Origin: Ruminococcus sp.
Lineage (GTDB): Bacteria; Bacillota; Clostridia; Oscillospirales; Ruminococcaceae
Direction: 5' to 3'
DNA: 64,000 nt
Assembly (NCBI GenBank): GCA_017397925.1
Contig: JAFQHO010000047.1
Span: 4,750-68,749 of the forward strand
Positions 21,115 through 48,463 of the stretch are shown here, in pieces; the stretch's first letter is position 1, and each line of letters opens with the position of its first letter. The position numbers and the translations under genes are program-made. The notes beneath the pieces were generated by a model. That model made no database searches. It saw nothing but the letters and a program-made list of their open reading frames with translations, and was not told the origin of the DNA.

Positions 21115-21188
21115 CGAGGTGTGGCTCAGTTTGGTAGAGTACTACGTTCGGGACGTAGGGGACGCAGGTTCAAATCCTGTCACCTCGA
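21115..21188 (+). tRNA. tRNA-Pro (CGG)
   Basis: CGAGGTG/CACCTCG acceptor stem; CTACG-TTCGGGA-CGTAG anticodon arm; GGTTCAAATCC. Promoter TTGACT-17-TATAAT at 21064-21092; terminator at 21194-21224. Confidence 0.95.
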
Positions 21189-21233
21189 CTTTTAGCTGAT
21201 GTTGTTTTTACATCAGCTTTTTTTATTAATGAA

Positions 21234-21263
21234 AAAGCCTGTATCAAAAACGATACAGGCTTT
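21234..21263 (-). terminator. Terminator closing the dockerin/radical SAM operon
   Basis: AAAGCCTGTATC/GATACAGGCTTT, 6 nt after the rSAM stop, with a U-tract on the minus strand. Confidence 0.7.
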
Positions 21264-22343: not shown

Positions 22344-22356
22344 TTATATATTCTCC

Positions 22357-23223
22357 TTATTGAAATACACTCGGTGGACCGTATAATGGCGCAAAAGTTA
22401 CTTCTGTGGTGGTGATACTGTCATTCTCCTCTACGGTAGTTGTAAACCAAGAAGGCGGTCCGTATACTCCAGCAAGTTCTGTTCTTGTAGTTGTTGTAAC
22501 ATCTTCTCTTTCGGGGTAACGAATATCATCAATCTTTCCCATAAGATACTTATTTAGAAGCACCAGGTCAGCAACAGAAATCTTCATATCGTTGTTTACA
22601 TCAGCTGCGAAACTATAATTTGTATTGTTTTCAGCAAATCTCTCACGAAGTAGTATCATATCAAATACATCAAGTCTGTTATCAGCATTCACATCACCAT
22701 ATAGCGGTGCAGGGCCGTATACAGGCTGACCATTTGTCTGAAGTTCGGCTATTACATAGTCTGTTGTAGTCGTTGTATCATTAATATCAGGAGCTGTAGT
22801 TGTAGTAAACACAGAAGGAGGACCGTAAAGAGTATTAAAAGCAGTTGTATTTATTACAGTAGTTGTTGTCCAATTTTCAAACTCATCTTCATCAGGGGCC
22901 TTTGTTGTCATATACTCAGGCGGACCATATAATGGTACTGTTGTAGGTCTAGTTACAACACCCTCTTCATCATAATTATTACCGTAATCATAATCTGACG
23001 GTGGCGGGCCATATACAGCAGACATTTTTGAATTCAGTTCCTTGATTGCATCAATTGAGATACCCGATTGACTATCAGCAACGCTTTCCATACCTACTAC
23101 AGAGGTTGTAGTTGATGTAAATGCAGCGCCTGCCTCAACAGGCTCAGCAGCTGCATTTGCAGTACCATACATTGCTGCGGCAAAAATAGCAGCAGTTAAA
23201 GCCGTTTTTTCAGTTTTTTTCAT
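22357..23223 (-). CDS. Secreted dockerin protein with six [VL]YGP[PA] repeats; putative rSAM substrate
   Basis: Signal peptide; dockerin YGDVNADNRLDVFDMILL...ADVNNDMKISVADLVLLNKYL (about aa 175-231); YGP motifs at Y71, 99, 133, 169, 254, 281 separated by Thr-rich spacers. Confidence 0.8.
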   Translation of the reverse strand: MKKTEKTALTAAIFAAAMYGTANAAAEPVEAGAAFTSTTTSVVGMESVADSQSGISIDAIKELNSKMSAVYGPPPSDYDYGNNYDEEGVVTRPTTVPLYGPPEYMTTKAPDEDEFENWTTTTVINTTAFNTLYGPPSVFTTTTAPDINDTTTTTDYVIAELQTNGQPVYGPAPLYGDVNADNRLDVFDMILLRERFAENNTNYSFAADVNNDMKISVADLVLLNKYLMGKIDDIRYPEREDVTTTTRTELAGVYGPPSWFTTTVEENDSITTTEVTFAPLYGPPSVFQ

Positions 23224-23410
23224 AAAAATTCTCCTCTCATAATATTATCAGTTTAAAAGTAAAGCTATACAGGCTATTATAACTTTACCATATGAATATA
23301 ACTATCCATTTATATTATACATCAATAACATATCTATTTCAAGTAATTTAGCAAAATTCAACAAACATTCGTAACGTTGCACAAAATAGCAACTGTAGAT
23401 TTGGCGAATA

Positions 23411-38659: not shown

Positions 38660-40168
38660 TTACGCTGTAAGCTTTTCTCTCATTCTGCAAAAATCAAAAA
38701 CATCAATAATACCATCCCTGCACAGATCTCCTGCCTGCCAGTCAGTAATCTCACCACTGCCTAAAAGCCAACATTCCAGCATCACTGCATCAGCAATGGA
38801 AAATTCACCGTCAGCGTTTACATCTCCGGTTACTGAAACAGCAACAGAAAGTTTTTCCTTTATGACGGATAAAAGTGAATACGCCCCTGCTGCATCCTGA
38901 GAGAGCTCCCATATCATAATTCCGCCATATTCTTTAGCTATATCGCACTTTTTAGCCATTGTAGCCGCACCGTTGTACGCTATATCGTTGTATAAATCTC
39001 TGTTGTAATTATCCTTATCCTTTTCAATTAACTCAGCAAACGATATATACGAGTTCCAGTCAAGTTTGCCATCAGAGGTGTATCCCCTGCCATAGAACGG
39101 CACACCAAGAACAAGCTTTTCCTTTGGTATTTTCTTCTGTATATTAAAATATTTCAGCGATGTCTGTGTGAAATCCATATCACAATGTGAGCTTTCATCA
39201 GCATCATTATCATATGCCATAACATTTATAAAATCAAATAATCCAAATGTTTCGGGAGAAACTTTTACAGCTACCCACTGTGCCGAAGCTGTCGAAAGCT
39301 CGTAGTCATATTCATCACAAAGGATTCTCAAAGAAGCTACCCAATCGGCGTAATAATTCCATATTTCGTGATTTGAACCCAATTCAATATCAAGGTCAAT
39401 ACCATCAAGGTCGTATTTTTCGCAATAAGCAATAATTTTCTCATTGAAATCCGTCATTTCTTCGGGAGTATCCAGCAATGGAAGATACCCGTCACAGCCT
39501 CCTCCACCGCCTAATGCCGCCATAACCTTAACACCGTTGCTATGAGCCTCGCTTACTATGTTTTTCATCTCAATATCAGGTATATAACAGGATAGATCAC
39601 CATTGCTGTCGGGATTGCAGAAGGCTATGTTCATATGCGTCAATGCGCTGAAATCAAGCTTTCCATATGTCTGATATGACCAATCAGGAAGATAGCCTAC
39701 AACCCTTGAAATATGCTCCCTGTCCTCTTCTTCGGGAGTTTCCGCCGTACTGCCGCCCATAACCATATCAATGGAATAGACTGTCACAGGAGTATTTGCC
39801 GCCATAACTGAAATATAATCAAGAAGAGAAAAATCTGTGCCGAATGCATCAGTCATAGCTTCATAGGAATAGTAATATGTATCGCCGCTTGCATCGTCGG
39901 GAAGCAGGCTTGCCCAAGTTTCGCCGCCGCTGTATGATGTAAGCACAAAATAAGGAGCATCATCAGAAGCACATTTAACGGCTATTTTGTTTCCTTCGGC
40001 ATATATACTTGTGTCAGGCACGGGAATTGTCAACGGACAAGTCCACGCATCGGCTGAAGCCTCTCCTTCATATAAATGTATAACATTCTCATTTGCGTAA
40101 GCAGTCATTGTCTGCGTAATCATCAATACCACTGCAGCAACAACAGATATGATTTTACTTATTCTCAT
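38660..40168 (-). CDS. GH18 chitinase-like glycoside hydrolase with C-terminal dockerin
   Basis: Signal peptide; DGIDLDIE (DxDxE); MAYD; LGVPFYG; MIWEL; GDVNADG dockerin. Confidence 0.88.
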   Translation of the reverse strand: MRISKIISVVAAVVLMITQTMTAYANENVIHLYEGEASADAWTCPLTIPVPDTSIYAEGNKIAVKCASDDAPYFVLTSYSGGETWASLLPDDASGDTYYYSYEAMTDAFGTDFSLLDYISVMAANTPVTVYSIDMVMGGSTAETPEEEDREHISRVVGYLPDWSYQTYGKLDFSALTHMNIAFCNPDSNGDLSCYIPDIEMKNIVSEAHSNGVKVMAALGGGGGCDGYLPLLDTPEEMTDFNEKIIAYCEKYDLDGIDLDIELGSNHEIWNYYADWVASLRILCDEYDYELSTASAQWVAVKVSPETFGLFDFINVMAYDNDADESSHCDMDFTQTSLKYFNIQKKIPKEKLVLGVPFYGRGYTSDGKLDWNSYISFAELIEKDKDNYNRDLYNDIAYNGAATMAKKCDIAKEYGGIMIWELSQDAAGAYSLLSVIKEKLSVAVSVTGDVNADGEFSIADAVMLECWLLGSGEITDWQAGDLCRDGIIDVFDFCRMREKLTA

Positions 40169-40318
40169 AAAAGCACTCCTTTCGATATAGCACCAATGGG
40201 TATTATACTTCATATCTCAATTATATAATGTAAAGTCCTTTATGTCAATAATATTTTTCTTGACACACATCATTTTTTGGTATATAATATTTATATAAAA
40301 TTTTTAGCGGAGGTACAT

Positions 40319-43820: not shown

Positions 43821-45959
43821 TTATTCTGCTTGTGTTTCAAGCCACTTCTCCATATCTGTTTCTATTCCGCCTGTTGAAGTATATGCGTAGAACGCAAGGA
43901 TTGACGAAGCATCAGAGGAATCAATTTTATCGTCTTTGTTTACATCGGCCGCCTTTTTCGCCTTATCATCAAATGTGAGAGTTCCGTTTGTGGAAATTGC
44001 TGCATATTCCGCAAGTACAAGTGAAGCATCTACAGAACTTACAGAACCATCGCTGTCAACGTCGCCGAGAGGAATTTTTACTTCAACTATTTCATCGGAA
44101 ACCTCGATATCTTTTATTACATATTTAGCTTTTCCCTTATTTGTTACAACAACACGGATTTTAGATACTCCTGATACATCAATACTCTGCTTTGTCGGTA
44201 CCATTCCCGATGTCAAAATGATTTCCTCAGCAAGAACATTATCCAGATATATCTTTGCTGTTGAATCTGAAAGAGCTGTTTCGTCAACGTGTCCCCATAC
44301 CCAGGATATTGAATTAATGCTTTCTGTATTAATTACAAAAGATGAAGTACTTGTAGAACTTGAATACTGGCCATTAAAAACTATACCATTATAACAACTT
44401 TCGTTATTTACTTTATATGCTTCAAGTTCACTTACAAAATCAAATGTATTCGCATTATAAATGTCAAAGGCAGATGCCGCAAATGCCTTACCGTCTTTAT
44501 AATCAGGTGTAACAAATGATTTCTTAGCCTTTATTTCGTCTATTCCGATTTCCGCCAATGCAAATTTATCTTTTCCATTATGAGTTACACTTAATCTGAG
44601 ATTCTTACAGTCTGCTACATCAAATACAACATCACTAAAAAGCATATTACAATCCAACTCAATTTTTTCACTGAGAACATTGTCTTTATATACTGATAAC
44701 ACAGCATTTGTCATTGCTGTATTATCAACATGACCAAATGTTCCTTTTATTGTATCTACATTCTCAACATTAAAATCTACAATTGATGTAGATTTACTGC
44801 TTGAATAAACACCGCTGAAAAGTAATCCCTGATAATAATTTCTGCCGTTTATCTTTACAGATTCAAGGTCACTTACAGCTGTAAAACTTGACACATTCTG
44901 TACATTATAGACATCGCTGATAAACATCTCAGAAGTACCGTATGTAGGTGATTTACCTGTTTTTGGAGCAGTATTCGTATCAATTGTTATGTCTGTCATT
45001 GCAAAGCTTGCTTTTCCATCAAAATCAATTATAAATCTGAGTTCCGCTGTTTTAGAAACATCAATAGAATAATCTGATATTTCCATTGTAGCTGAAAGTG
45101 CAAATTTATCTACAAGAACATCATCGTGATAAACTGATACAGTGGCATTTGTCATTTGTGTATTATCAATGTGACCCATTGAAAAAGAAAGCTTATCAAT
45201 ATTTTCTGTATTAAAGCTGGCAGTAGCCGAACTTGCTGAAGAATTAAAACGTCCGCTGAAAATAATCCCTTGATAATAGTATCTTCCGTTAATTCTCTGT
45301 GCATCAAGGTCACTTACAGTTGAAAAGCTGCTATTATATGTAGAATTATATCTACCCTGAATAAAAGCGTCAACAGAATTATATGTGGGAACTACAGGCG
45401 ATGTTACAGGTTTCATATCATCAACAGCTACATCCGCCATTGCAAATTTAGCCTTGCCTGCGAAAGTTACAGATATTTTCAATACAGATGCAGCAGATAC
45501 ATCCAAAGAATTTTTCTGTTGTAACATATTTTCTGACAAAACATATTTATCTGTAAGAACATCGTCAAGATAAATTGACACCGTTGCACCTTTCATTGCT
45601 GTATTATCAACGTGTCCCCATACCCATGACAGCGATGAAACATCCTTTGTGTTATAATTGATAGATGCAGTTGATTCAGAACTTTCATAACGTCCCGCAA
45701 AAACAACACCCTGATTGTATGTTCTGCCGTTCATATTGAATGTCTTTGAACCGTCGCTATAAATTGTAGCATTTTTAGCGTCATATCCGCCTGCAAGAAA
45801 GCTTTCCGCTGTCAATGCTTCTTCCTTTTCTTCTGTTTCAGCCTTGTCAGCTGTTTCAGCCGCAGCTGCATAATTCATTGCAGCATGGGGATAAACACCT
45901 GTTGAGCTGCAGATTACTACACCTGCAATAAGTCCTGTGACAATACGTTTTAAATTCAT
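43821..45959 (-). CDS. Secreted protein with four tandem ~145-aa NPCBM/NEW2-like repeats and a C-terminal dockerin
   Basis: Repeat core NGR.Y.QG..F.G...GH.DNT.M..A....Y.D occurs four times; GDVDSDG/ADVNKDD dockerin. Confidence 0.75.
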   Translation of the reverse strand: MNLKRIVTGLIAGVVICSSTGVYPHAAMNYAAAAETADKAETEEKEEALTAESFLAGGYDAKNATIYSDGSKTFNMNGRTYNQGVVFAGRYESSESTASINYNTKDVSSLSWVWGHVDNTAMKGATVSIYLDDVLTDKYVLSENMLQQKNSLDVSAASVLKISVTFAGKAKFAMADVAVDDMKPVTSPVVPTYNSVDAFIQGRYNSTYNSSFSTVSDLDAQRINGRYYYQGIIFSGRFNSSASSATASFNTENIDKLSFSMGHIDNTQMTNATVSVYHDDVLVDKFALSATMEISDYSIDVSKTAELRFIIDFDGKASFAMTDITIDTNTAPKTGKSPTYGTSEMFISDVYNVQNVSSFTAVSDLESVKINGRNYYQGLLFSGVYSSSKSTSIVDFNVENVDTIKGTFGHVDNTAMTNAVLSVYKDNVLSEKIELDCNMLFSDVVFDVADCKNLRLSVTHNGKDKFALAEIGIDEIKAKKSFVTPDYKDGKAFAASAFDIYNANTFDFVSELEAYKVNNESCYNGIVFNGQYSSSTSTSSFVINTESINSISWVWGHVDETALSDSTAKIYLDNVLAEEIILTSGMVPTKQSIDVSGVSKIRVVVTNKGKAKYVIKDIEVSDEIVEVKIPLGDVDSDGSVSSVDASLVLAEYAAISTNGTLTFDDKAKKAADVNKDDKIDSSDASSILAFYAYTSTGGIETDMEKWLETQAE

Positions 45960-46123
45960 AATTTAACCTCCATATAAATTTCATATGTTTTCTACATATT
46001 ATTATTTTAACAAATCCAACATAACTTGTCAAGTAAAAAAATTCTCCCAATCTATTGCAAATTTTGTCCTTTTATGATACAATTATAATAGTATATTATG
46101 TGTATTTTCAGGAGGATAAAACT

Positions 46124-48463
46124 ATGGATAATAAAAGACCAAGAGCAAGACAGAAAAATGTCACATCAGGCGGCAGCGGAGTTCACAGACGTGGCAGCGG
46201 ACTTGGTACAGGCCCTGTGGGCTCAGGTAAAATAAGCTCTGGAAAAACAGGTGGAAGCGGTATGAAACGTGCCGCTGTCGGAGGCGGTATCAGCATCCCA
46301 ACTCTGCTTATTATCGGCTTTGCTATTATTAAAATGCTGGGCGGTGGCGGAAACGGAGCTTCTCAGCAGCAGCAGGACTTTATCCAGAATAACAACAACT
46401 CATTTTCAGGCGTCGATTTCTCTGACACAGGCAGTTCAGCGCAGATTGACAACAGCGTAGCTGCAGGTTCAAGAAACAAATACACAAATATTCTTGGCAG
46501 CAAAAACGACACTGTTACTGTAATGATTTACGTATGCGGTACTGACCTTGAATCAAAGCACGGTATGGCTTCTTCTGATATTCAGGAAATGGCATCAGCT
46601 AATTTCGGAGATAATGTAAATGTAATTCTCTACACAGGCGGCTGTAAACAGTGGAAAATTAACGGTATCAGCAATAAAGTTCATCAGATATACCAAATTA
46701 AAGACGGCGAACTTCTCCGTCTTGAAGATGATATGGGCAAGGGAGCTATGACTGACCCCGAAAATCTCACAGAATTCATCAAATACTGCAACAAACATTT
46801 CCCTGCTAACCGTAATAATCTCATTATGTGGGATCACGGCGGCGGCTCTGTCAGCGGTTATGGTTATGATGAAACTAATACATTAAGCGGCTCAATGGAT
46901 TTAGCAGAAATTGACAAGGCTCTCACAAATGCAGGAGTAAAGTTTGATTTTATCGGCTTTGATGCCTGTCTTATGGCTACTGCCGAAACTGCTCTTATGC
47001 TTAACGACCACGCAGATTATATGATTGCTTCCGAGGAAACAGAACCGGGTATCGGTTGGTATTATACAAACTGGCTTACAAAGCTTGGCAAGAATACGTC
47101 TATGCCTACAGTTGAAATCGGTAAGAATATTATTGACGATTTCGTTGATACCTGTGCAAAAAAATGCCGCGGTCAGAAAACCACACTTTCAATTATTGAT
47201 CTGGCAGAATTTTCAAATACTGTGCCTGATAAGCTTAATTCATTTGCTCAGTCAATCAGCACAAAGCTTACAAATAAGGAATACAAGGAAGTTTCCGATG
47301 CTCGTTATACAACCCGTGAATTTGCTGTAAGCTCCAAAATTGACCAGGTTGACCTTGCTCACCTTGCGCTCAATATGGATAACAACGAAGGTAAAGCTCT
47401 CAGCGATGCTATACAGAACGCTGTTAAATATAATCGTACATCTTCCGATATAAGCAATGCCTACGGCGTATCAATCTATTTCCCCTACAGAAAGACATCA
47501 AGCGTTGATGCAGCCTGCAATACATACAATAAAATTGGTATGGACTCCGAATACAGCCAGTGTATAAAGCAGTTTGCAAGCCTTGAAACAGCAGGACAGA
47601 TTTCAGCTGGAGGTACCTCCTCCCCTGTCCCCTCACTTCTTGATATGCTTGGAAGTGCAACAGGCTCATCAGGCGGAAGCGCTGATATGATTGGTCAGCT
47701 GCTCGGTTCTTTCCTCGGCGGTGCTTCTGACAGGACAATTGAAGGCCTTGACAGCTCAAATACAGCTTATATGAACGATAACGCCCTTTCTACCGATGAT
47801 ACAGCTGAATATATCTCCGCAAACTATTTTGACCCTACAAACCTCGTGTGGGAGCAGAACAGTAACGGCGAATATATTATGGAACTTCCCGAAAAACAGT
47901 GGGAGCTTGTACACACTCTTGACAAAAACCTGTTCTATGATGACGGTACAGGCTATGTTGATATGGGACTTGACAACGTGTTTACATTTGATGATGACGG
48001 AAATCTCATTGCAGATACCGATGATACCTGGGTAGCAATCGACGGTCAGCCTGTTGCATATTACCACACAGATACAACAGAGTTCGGCAATGACAGATAT
48101 TCAATTTCAGGCTATGTTCCTGCACTTCTCAACGATGAGCGTGTAAATCTAATCATAGTATTTGATTCTGAAAATCCCAATGGCTATATTGCAGGAGCTT
48201 CAACTGACTATATAAACGCAGAAACAGATACAGTTGCAAAGAATATGATTGAGCTTGAAGCTGGCGATACTCTCGACTTTATCTGTGATTATTACGACTA
48301 TAGCGGCAACTACAGCGACAGCTATTTCCTCGGCGAGCAGATGACAGTTTCCGATAATATGGAAATCAGCAATGTAAGCGTAGGCGACGGAAACCTCAAA
48401 ATCAGCTATTGCTTTACTGATATTTACAATCAGATTTACTGGACTGAGGCGATTAACAAGTAA
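46124..48463 (+). CDS. Clostripain-family (C11) cysteine peptidase, membrane anchored
   Basis: VMIYVCGTDLES, WDHGGG (His), FDACLM (Cys), ASEETEPG; Gly-rich N-terminus plus one TM. Confidence 0.85.
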   Translation: MDNKRPRARQKNVTSGGSGVHRRGSGLGTGPVGSGKISSGKTGGSGMKRAAVGGGISIPTLLIIGFAIIKMLGGGGNGASQQQQDFIQNNNNSFSGVDFSDTGSSAQIDNSVAAGSRNKYTNILGSKNDTVTVMIYVCGTDLESKHGMASSDIQEMASANFGDNVNVILYTGGCKQWKINGISNKVHQIYQIKDGELLRLEDDMGKGAMTDPENLTEFIKYCNKHFPANRNNLIMWDHGGGSVSGYGYDETNTLSGSMDLAEIDKALTNAGVKFDFIGFDACLMATAETALMLNDHADYMIASEETEPGIGWYYTNWLTKLGKNTSMPTVEIGKNIIDDFVDTCAKKCRGQKTTLSIIDLAEFSNTVPDKLNSFAQSISTKLTNKEYKEVSDARYTTREFAVSSKIDQVDLAHLALNMDNNEGKALSDAIQNAVKYNRTSSDISNAYGVSIYFPYRKTSSVDAACNTYNKIGMDSEYSQCIKQFASLETAGQISAGGTSSPVPSLLDMLGSATGSSGGSADMIGQLLGSFLGGASDRTIEGLDSSNTAYMNDNALSTDDTAEYISANYFDPTNLVWEQNSNGEYIMELPEKQWELVHTLDKNLFYDDGTGYVDMGLDNVFTFDDDGNLIADTDDTWVAIDGQPVAYYHTDTTEFGNDRYSISGYVPALLNDERVNLIIVFDSENPNGYIAGASTDYINAETDTVAKNMIELEAGDTLDFICDYYDYSGNYSDSYFLGEQMTVSDNMEISNVSVGDGNLKISYCFTDIYNQIYWTEAINK

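Follow-up and report, generated by a model that had tools for sequence, protein, structure and literature searches.

A dockerin-bearing YGPP-repeat protein and its radical SAM/SPASM partner in Ruminococcus: a candidate modified cellulosome component

Why would a bacterium that builds cellulosomes secrete a protein whose only recognizable domain is a dockerin, and encode it directly before a radical S-adenosylmethionine (SAM) enzyme? This question is raised by a 64,000-nucleotide stretch of a Ruminococcus sp. genome (assembly GCA_017397925.1, contig JAFQHO010000047.1, positions 4,750 to 68,749; hereafter the window), in which a gene for a protein with YGPP repeats and a dockerin (hereafter the substrate) forms a bicistronic operon with the gene of a radical SAM/SPASM enzyme (Table 1). 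The two gene products very likely make up a true pair of enzyme and substrate, a variant with a dockerin anchor of the still uncharacterised radical SAM/YG-lipoprotein systems, judging from their sequences and those of their relatives. The whole reading favoured here, in which the substrate is spliced by its enzyme, exported and displayed on the cellulosome through its dockerin, is regarded as somewhat probable.

The YGPP protein and its enzyme partner

By inspection, the N-terminus of the substrate is a Sec-type signal peptide, with an n-region rich in Lys, an h-region of Ala, Leu and Phe and the cleavage motif A-N-A, after which the mature chain would begin with AAE. The Pfam scan of the substrate found no domain besides Dockerin_1 (33.3 bits against a cut-off of 22.9, E = 5.5e-8; 36.6 bits in the genome scan), and AlphaFold2, run with a 42-sequence alignment, gave a confident model only at about residues 170-240 (predicted local distance difference test, pLDDT, of 82-92), nearly all of the remainder being below 50. 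In a Foldseek search of this model against the PDB, all 27 matches were dockerins, with template modelling scores to the target of up to 0.91 and mostly 0.72-0.91. The first-pass annotation, made from the sequence alone, had described a signal peptide, an intact two-repeat dockerin between motifs 4 and 5 and the lack of any catalytic domain, and it was right on the three points, as the dockerin lies between Y169 and Y254 and is the only part that Pfam recognizes and AlphaFold2 folds. The mature protein lacks Cys, contains 39 Thr and carries a net charge of -27, and outside the dockerin it is predicted to be a mostly disordered, acidic, Thr-rich and Cys-free chain.

Six [VL]YGP motifs are spread along this chain. 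They are not a chance feature, since the tripeptide is very rare in the rest of the genome: the open reading frames (ORFs) of the whole 2.71-Mb genome, with about 952,000 residues, contain 41 YGP, of which the substrate accounts for six, and no other ORF of the genome has at least three. Motif 4 is placed six residues ahead of the first calcium ligand of the dockerin, and its Y169-G170-P171 is invariant in the 42-sequence alignment.

Concerning the enzyme, Pfam recognizes Radical_SAM (79 bits) and SPASM (33.6 bits) domains, and both the CxxxCxxC motif at C38/C42/C45 and the SPASM cysteines are intact and invariant among its relatives. It lacks a signal peptide, and its CxxxCxxC motif is preceded by only about 30 residues, hence there is no N-terminal recognition element (RRE) domain of the kind named after peptides that the ribosome makes and that are modified after translation (RiPPs). 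Its best family model is TIGR04133, with 257.5 bits against 147 for the next family. The enzyme is present as a single copy, at an identity of at least 70%, in 64 of the 121 sampled species of the genus, and the system is therefore common, being found in about half of them.

The association of the two genes extends well beyond the window. The search for substrate homologues returned 233 proteins, nearly all with a dockerin and one to eight YGP motifs, and the closest relatives of both window proteins belong to Ruminococcus and R. flavefaciens. Across 68 diverse homologues, conservation is limited to the first 17 residues, the YGPP motifs and the dockerin, and the rest is variable; identity to relatives is 70-90% for the enzyme versus 35-60% for the substrate. 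In the first 17 residues (MKKTxKTALTAAxFAAA), column conservation over these homologues ranges from 60 to 99%, M1, K2, K3, A11, F14 and A15 are invariant in alignment A3 (Table 1), and a pattern of this type was found in no other ORF of the genome. Loci were then collected with one genome per species, and 80 of them, whose enzymes are 43-90% identical to the query, were compared (the narrower alignment A2 was used). In about 60 of these 80 loci, one or more genes encoding signal-peptide proteins with one to seven [VL]YGPP motifs lie directly upstream of the radical SAM gene, on the same strand and at a distance of 0-300 nt, and the loci without a partner mostly hold the most distant enzymes or begin at a contig edge. 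The flanking genes vary between loci; in R. flavefaciens, the same two genes are 2 nt apart and their neighbours are unlike those of the window.

Two further arrangements bear on this association. In some loci (L024 and L027), a single enzyme gene follows an array of two to five substrate paralogues, and in two independent relatives, P0252 and P0256, the motif is fused to the C-terminus of the enzyme. Among the 80 fetched loci no enzyme-motif fusion occurs, and P0252 is a singleton cluster. Taken together, the pairing, the fusions, the paralogue arrays and the conservation of the motif make a functional link between the enzyme and the YGPP protein very likely, and the enzyme very probably modifies the YGPP motifs before export.

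Other features of the relatives can be mentioned here. L024 (796-3982) and L027 (719-3982) each carry five tandem dockerin-YGPP paralogues, all with the family signal peptide, together with a single radical SAM gene. Some enzyme relatives (P0252, P0256, P0253 and the one at L095:3001-4371) end in a tail with one [IL]YGPP and CxxC zinc-ribbon pairs, and one tailed relative has VVYGCATP/RVYGVATP repeats at its N-terminus. Moreover, P0259-P0273 and other relatives of 535-560 residues have at the C-terminus a domain whose H-S-H-P motif is JAMM/MPN-like, which suggests a fusion of the enzyme with a peptidase.

Anchors, cohesins and the cellulosome

The first-pass annotation had proposed that the dockerin replaces the lipid anchor of Bacteroidetes partners, and had suggested a survey of the anchors that accompany YGP repeats. 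In the loci surveyed here the lipobox is the usual anchor, the dockerin belongs to one Ruminococcus clade and a transmembrane segment appears occasionally. The lipobox is found in most partners, in Oscillospiraceae, Lachnospiraceae and Coriobacteriia, and its Cys is often directly followed by VYGPP. The third type of anchor is an N-terminal multi-span membrane segment in two Lachnospiraceae loci (L062:3405-3950 and L073:3233-3943), and the partner at L071 has no signal peptide. Thus, the replacement of one anchor by another is supported, but the lipid-anchored partners are not confined to Bacteroidetes: they were seen directly in relatives from Firmicutes and Actinomycetota, some Ruminococcus included, and the Bacteroidetes part of the proposal rests on the name of the family. 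One locus, L076, comes from a 0.9-Mb genome labelled Muribaculaceae, and the phylum sample around it consists mostly of genomes of 0.6-2.3 Mb without the family.

The direction of the replacement is suggested by the maximum-likelihood tree of the enzyme. All 14 dockerin-type rows fall in one 17-row clade (support 97/97), and its sister is a 44-row clade that is of the lipobox type wherever a partner was found. The three lipobox-type members within the dockerin clade begin with the same MKKTxKTALTAA sequence, and at L019 and L026 lipobox and dockerin versions stand together in one operon, which makes the dockerin-type protein look like a derivative of the lipoprotein version. Dockerin-type partners were found, among the loci surveyed, in Ruminococcus-like genomes only, and cohesins are present in 13 of the 13 genomes with a dockerin-type partner versus 9 of the 37 with other anchors (Fisher's exact test, p = 1.4e-6, uncorrected for phylogeny).

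The host is a cellulosome-producing rumen Ruminococcus, whose genome contains about 96 dockerin matches and four cohesin matches over the Pfam cut-offs. Its cohesins lie on contigs C32 (a ScaC orthologue), C49 (ScaA/B-like), C11 and C81. That it uses cohesin-dockerin assembly had been deduced earlier from two further dockerin genes of the window, and both turned out to be real: one encodes a CBM65-GH18-dockerin protein (38660..40213, minus strand) and the other an NPCBM-dockerin protein (43821..45959, minus strand).

Regarding the specificity of the substrate dockerin, its calcium loops (DVNADNRLDVFD at 177 and DVNNDMKISVAD at 208) keep the ligand positions 1, 3, 5, 9 and 12. Its best sequence match in the PDB is 5lxv_B (E = 1.2e-7), an R. 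flavefaciens dockerin co-crystallised with the ScaC cohesin, and the group-1 dockerin 5m2s_B gave only E = 0.16. The genome has a ScaC orthologue (contig C32:12722-13649, plus strand), whose cohesin matches 5lxv_A with E = 3.3e-52 and which ends in a group-1-like dockerin. The dockerins of the genome nearest to that of the substrate are internal ones in multimodular hemicellulases and esterases, plus one in an S8 protease. [quoted passage not shown] Since the best match is a ScaC-binding dockerin, the orthologue is present and the nearest dockerins belong to the ScaC-binding class, the ScaC cohesin is the predicted partner, a prediction to which we give an even chance. The S8 protease just mentioned is a subtilisin-like protein (contig C70:562-3199, plus strand) with an N-terminal dockerin among the closest of the genome to that of the substrate, and could possibly be a partner or target on the same scaffoldin.

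Candidate chemistry, order of events and alternatives

In 203 partner proteins, Tyr occupies the place between [VLIM] and GPP in 628 of 628 cases, and Gly that between [VLIM]Y and PP in 628 of 634. Tyr is preceded by Val in 71% and by Leu in 18%, with Ala or Met also found. The Pro residues after Tyr-Gly are strongly conserved, at +2 in 85% and at +3 in 71%. Tyramine spliceases act on X-Tyr-Gly sites, from which they remove a tyramine unit so that an alpha-keto-beta-amino residue is left (PMC11414181, PMC9811515, PMC11626197), and the resulting spliceotides act as inhibitors of Ser and Cys proteases in their spliced form only (PMC11626197). As Tyr and Gly are effectively invariant, the motif fits the splicease site, and this X-Tyr-Gly grammar is the sole link to splicease chemistry. 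If the protein is modified, tyramine excision would be the most likely chemistry, with about as much to be said for it as against it. Two other chemistries were ruled out: thioether formation (sacti/ranthipeptide), because the substrate has no Cys, and formylglycine maturation, because no C/S-x-P-x-R motif was read in its sequence.

From these observations we infer the following order of events. The first gene product would be made with its Sec signal peptide, and the cytoplasmic enzyme would alter the Tyr in at least some, and possibly all, of the six P-x-P-[VL]-Y-G-P-P motifs while the chain is unfolded; tyramine excision would leave at each site an alpha-keto-beta-amino (ketoamide) residue derived from Val or Leu. 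Modification would have to precede Sec transport, since the enzyme is cytoplasmic and the substrate exported, and a disordered substrate suits this timing. The modified chain would then be exported by Sec and lose its signal peptide, and the dockerin would fold with calcium and dock onto a cohesin, the likeliest being the one on the ScaC adaptor scaffoldin, so that the cellulosome would carry a flexible chain of modified residues. The signal peptide is the sole conserved helix-prone segment of the substrate and its conservation is unusual, so it may be read by the enzyme. Binary spliceases have an activating leader helix (PMC11414181), and it is a speculative idea that the signal peptide doubles as the recognition or activating helix here. 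As for function, a protective role as protease inhibitor is the leading guess, although a doubtful one drawn by analogy; it is made plausible by the dockerin-bearing serpin, a precedent for a cellulosome-bound protease inhibitor. Like the ketoamide itself, it is something that we infer. The fullest version of the proposal, in which scaffoldins display a chain with up to six ketoamides, the signal peptide is the recognition helix and the module has been moved among lipid, transmembrane and dockerin anchors, is put forward tentatively, as a possibility that we would sooner doubt than expect.

Several results weigh against the splicing and display of the substrate as outlined above. The Pro-Pro that follows Tyr-Gly is no described feature of splice sites and could point to other chemistry. 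The enzyme scores under the TIGR04133 cut-off (257 against 425 bits) and far under that of the PlpX splicease model (TIGR04103/IPR026482; 114.4 against 725), a model that ranks below AhbD, NirJ2, MftC and others for this protein, and its nearest solved structures are generic radical SAM enzymes (BlsE, SkfB, MoaA) that are uninformative on chemistry. In the AlphaFold2 model of the natural fusion P0252, the core is confident, but the tail with the motif is of low confidence (pLDDT below 50) and was not placed in the active site. On the side of the dockerin, position 6 of both calcium loops is N/M and not the usual Gly, and three lipobox-type systems occur in Ruminococcus genomes with cohesins, so that cohesins do not dictate the anchor. 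Finally, the literature search found nothing linking dockerins with such a radical SAM system, but the splicease survey of Scott et al. 2022 (Chem 8:2659), known here via PMC10849128 and PMC11414181, may cover the family.

The conserved Pro residues, which the splice-site rule does not need at either position, are also an argument for keeping the pair and its display on the cellulosome but with a different reaction, such as a Tyr-Pro cyclophane, a Val-Tyr link of the MftC kind, hydroxylation or epimerisation; the product would then be a rigid or protease-resistant linker with no ketoamide warhead. By model score the enzyme is no closer to a splicease than to MftC, AhbD or NirJ. Triceptide precursors, known from the 3-CyFE literature, typically carry repeated three-residue motifs, and Y-G-P formally fits their aromatic-X-X pattern. 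However, the middle residue of triceptide motifs is usually variable, and the invariant Gly of the YGPP motifs argues against them. A Gly so nearly fixed and a Tyr that is never Phe or Trp fit the strict Tyr-Gly requirement of splicing better, and MftC acts on a C-terminal Tyr whereas the YGPP motifs are internal. A different reaction at these motifs, such as a cross-link, is considered unlikely, but it is the chief rival of splicing.

A more radical alternative is that the dockerin protein is an ordinary non-catalytic component or linker of the cellulosome, with YGPP motifs as polyproline-like spacers, and that the enzyme acts elsewhere, being adjacent only through co-regulation. Thr/Pro-rich linkers are common in cellulosomal proteins, and the fused motif was left undocked in the enzyme by AlphaFold2. 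This is nevertheless very improbable, as the pairing persists through changes of anchor, host phylum and flanking genes over about 60 loci, two relatives carry a fusion of motif and enzyme, the remainder of the proteome is almost free of YGP, up to five paralogues precede one enzyme gene and the operon has no other conserved partner. The protein could also be modified as proposed and end up elsewhere, its dockerin binding a cell-surface or other cohesin or being degenerate, in which case the product, like the related lipoproteins, would act at the cell wall. The departure from Gly in both calcium loops, the membrane anchors of the sister systems, the mixed operons at L019 and L026 and the several cohesin proteins of the genome without assigned specificity agree with such a location; on the other hand, the calcium ligands are intact, the dockerin fold is confidently predicted, the best match is a ScaC-binding dockerin in a genome that has a ScaC orthologue, and in FD-1 the dockerins of groups 3 and 6 bound ScaC alone (PMC5301203). 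Action at the cell wall is therefore held to be improbable, if less so than the role of an ordinary linker, and display on the cellulosome is preferred.

Compared with known systems, the pair resembles the spliceotide systems (PlpX/PlpY-PlpA and the binary RhaX, RasX and RcsX) in having a radical SAM/SPASM gene beside that of the substrate, a hydrophobic X-Tyr-Gly motif and possibly multiple sites. Those systems also accept proteins as well as peptides as substrates, and the binary ones work without a Y protein, a gene for which is likewise absent from the two-gene operon of the window. It differs from them in that the enzyme is outside the PlpX model, the motif is extended by Pro-Pro, the substrate is an exported protein of 288 residues with a Sec signal peptide and a dockerin and no Nif11/NHLP-type leader, and the system is known from sequence alone. 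With the TIGR04133/TIGR04134 pair, called 'rSAM with lipoprotein' and described in NCBIfam as hypothetical equivalogs of uncharacterised function, it shares a cytoplasmic radical SAM/SPASM enzyme and an exported, anchored, low-complexity partner, but here the partner has neither lipobox nor Cys and the dockerin is the anchor. No match to TIGR04134 was listed at E up to 10 for the window protein and three lipobox-type relatives, and the literature search for TIGR04133 found no paper.

Exported products of related logic are also known. Anaerobic sulfatase-maturing enzymes (AtsB/anSME), founding members of the SPASM group, modify a short motif in an unfolded signal-peptide protein before Sec export, but they act on one Cys/Ser-x-Pro-x-Arg site per protein and yield the catalytic formylglycine of a folded enzyme. 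[quoted passage not shown] Cytoplasmic modification (proposed in our case), a general secretion signal, surface anchoring and possibly protein-sized products are common to both, whereas theirs is an MNIO system with a Cys-based motif and a lipid anchor and here a radical SAM enzyme and a dockerin are found. The dockerin serpin of R. flavefaciens (PMC5301203) is a further case of a dockerin on a protein that is not carbohydrate-active, and the substrate dockerin is type I-like and by similarity of the group 3/6 kind; however, the serpin works through its fold, and here backbone chemistry on a disordered chain is proposed. Public records label the substrate 'dockerin type I repeat-containing protein' and the enzyme 'radical SAM/SPASM domain-containing protein', and nothing more.

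If the favoured reading is true, the substrate would be the first cellulosome subunit to be post-translationally 'spliced'. Modification of any kind would make it a new sort of cellulosome component, with the dockerin as its sole domain and an activity owed to a disordered chain whose backbone is altered by radical chemistry, and would present the radical SAM/YG-repeat systems, which are widespread in gut anaerobes, as a means of surface display whose anchor is suited to the envelope of each host. Cultured carriers exist (R. flavefaciens YL228 and Ruminococcus sp. XPD3002), and the dockerin is an affinity handle by which the native product could be retrieved with a cohesin; such a pull-down would make the nature and role of natural spliceotide-like products directly testable. 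A natural inhibitor of proteases with multiple warheads would, if confirmed, also be of practical interest for designer cellulosomes.

Operon layout and neighbouring genes

The two genes of the operon are in different reading frames, with uvrA and uvrB upstream and a convergent tRNA-Pro gene downstream. The promoter-like site of Table 1 does no more than match the consensus, and the region holds about as many such sites as expected from shuffled sequence. The terminator was read by eye and a pattern scan of the region did not list its hairpin. When the operon and its leader were scanned with Rfam, the neighbouring tRNA was the sole match.

Table 1. Features of the substrate-enzyme operon, in window coordinates (A3, alignment of substrate homologues).
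Feature	Positions	Strand	Basis and remarks
Substrate gene, secreted 288-aa protein with YGPP repeats and dockerin	22357..23223 (stop codon included)	-	ORF translation, Pfam, alignments
Signal peptide, residues 1-24, MKKTEKTALTAAIFAAAMYGTANA	23152..23223	-	Cleavage site read from sequence
YGP motif 1, V-Y71-G-P-P-P	23005..23013	-	Y71 and P73 invariant, G72 nearly so (A3)
YGP motif 2, L-Y99-G-P-P	22921..22929	-	Motif scan
YGP motif 3, L-Y133-G-P-P	22819..22827	-	Nearly invariant (A3)
YGP motif 4, V-Y169-G-P-A-P, abuts dockerin	22711..22719	-	Y169, G170 and P171 invariant (A3)
YGP motif 5, V-Y254-G-P-P	22456..22464	-	Motif scan
YGP motif 6, L-Y281-G-P-P, 5 residues from C-terminus	22375..22383	-	Nearly invariant (A3)
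Type I dockerin, residues 175-227, two Ca-binding loops and two helices	22543..22701	-	Pfam, AlphaFold2, Foldseek
Promoter-like site, TTGAAA / 17 nt / TATAAT, about 90 nt upstream of substrate start	23314..23342	-	11 of 12 consensus matches
Ribosome-binding site GGAGA of radical SAM gene, right after substrate TAA and 8 nt before ATG	22352..22356	-	Sequence reading
Radical SAM/SPASM enzyme gene, 357 aa	21270..22343	-	Pfam, family-model scan
Intrinsic terminator 3' of radical SAM gene: AGCCTGTATC, loop gttttt, GATACAGGCT, then TTTT	21232..21261	-	Sequence reading

The downstream tRNA-Pro(CGG) gene (21115-21189, plus strand) is located just past the terminator. CCG accounts for 6 of the 21 Pro codons of the substrate gene versus 14% genome-wide, and its enrichment beside this tRNA is probably a coincidence, the numbers being small. 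Farther along the window, an 802-residue protein of the Peptidase_C11 (clostripain) family is encoded at 46055-48463 (plus strand) and adjoins the NPCBM-dockerin gene.

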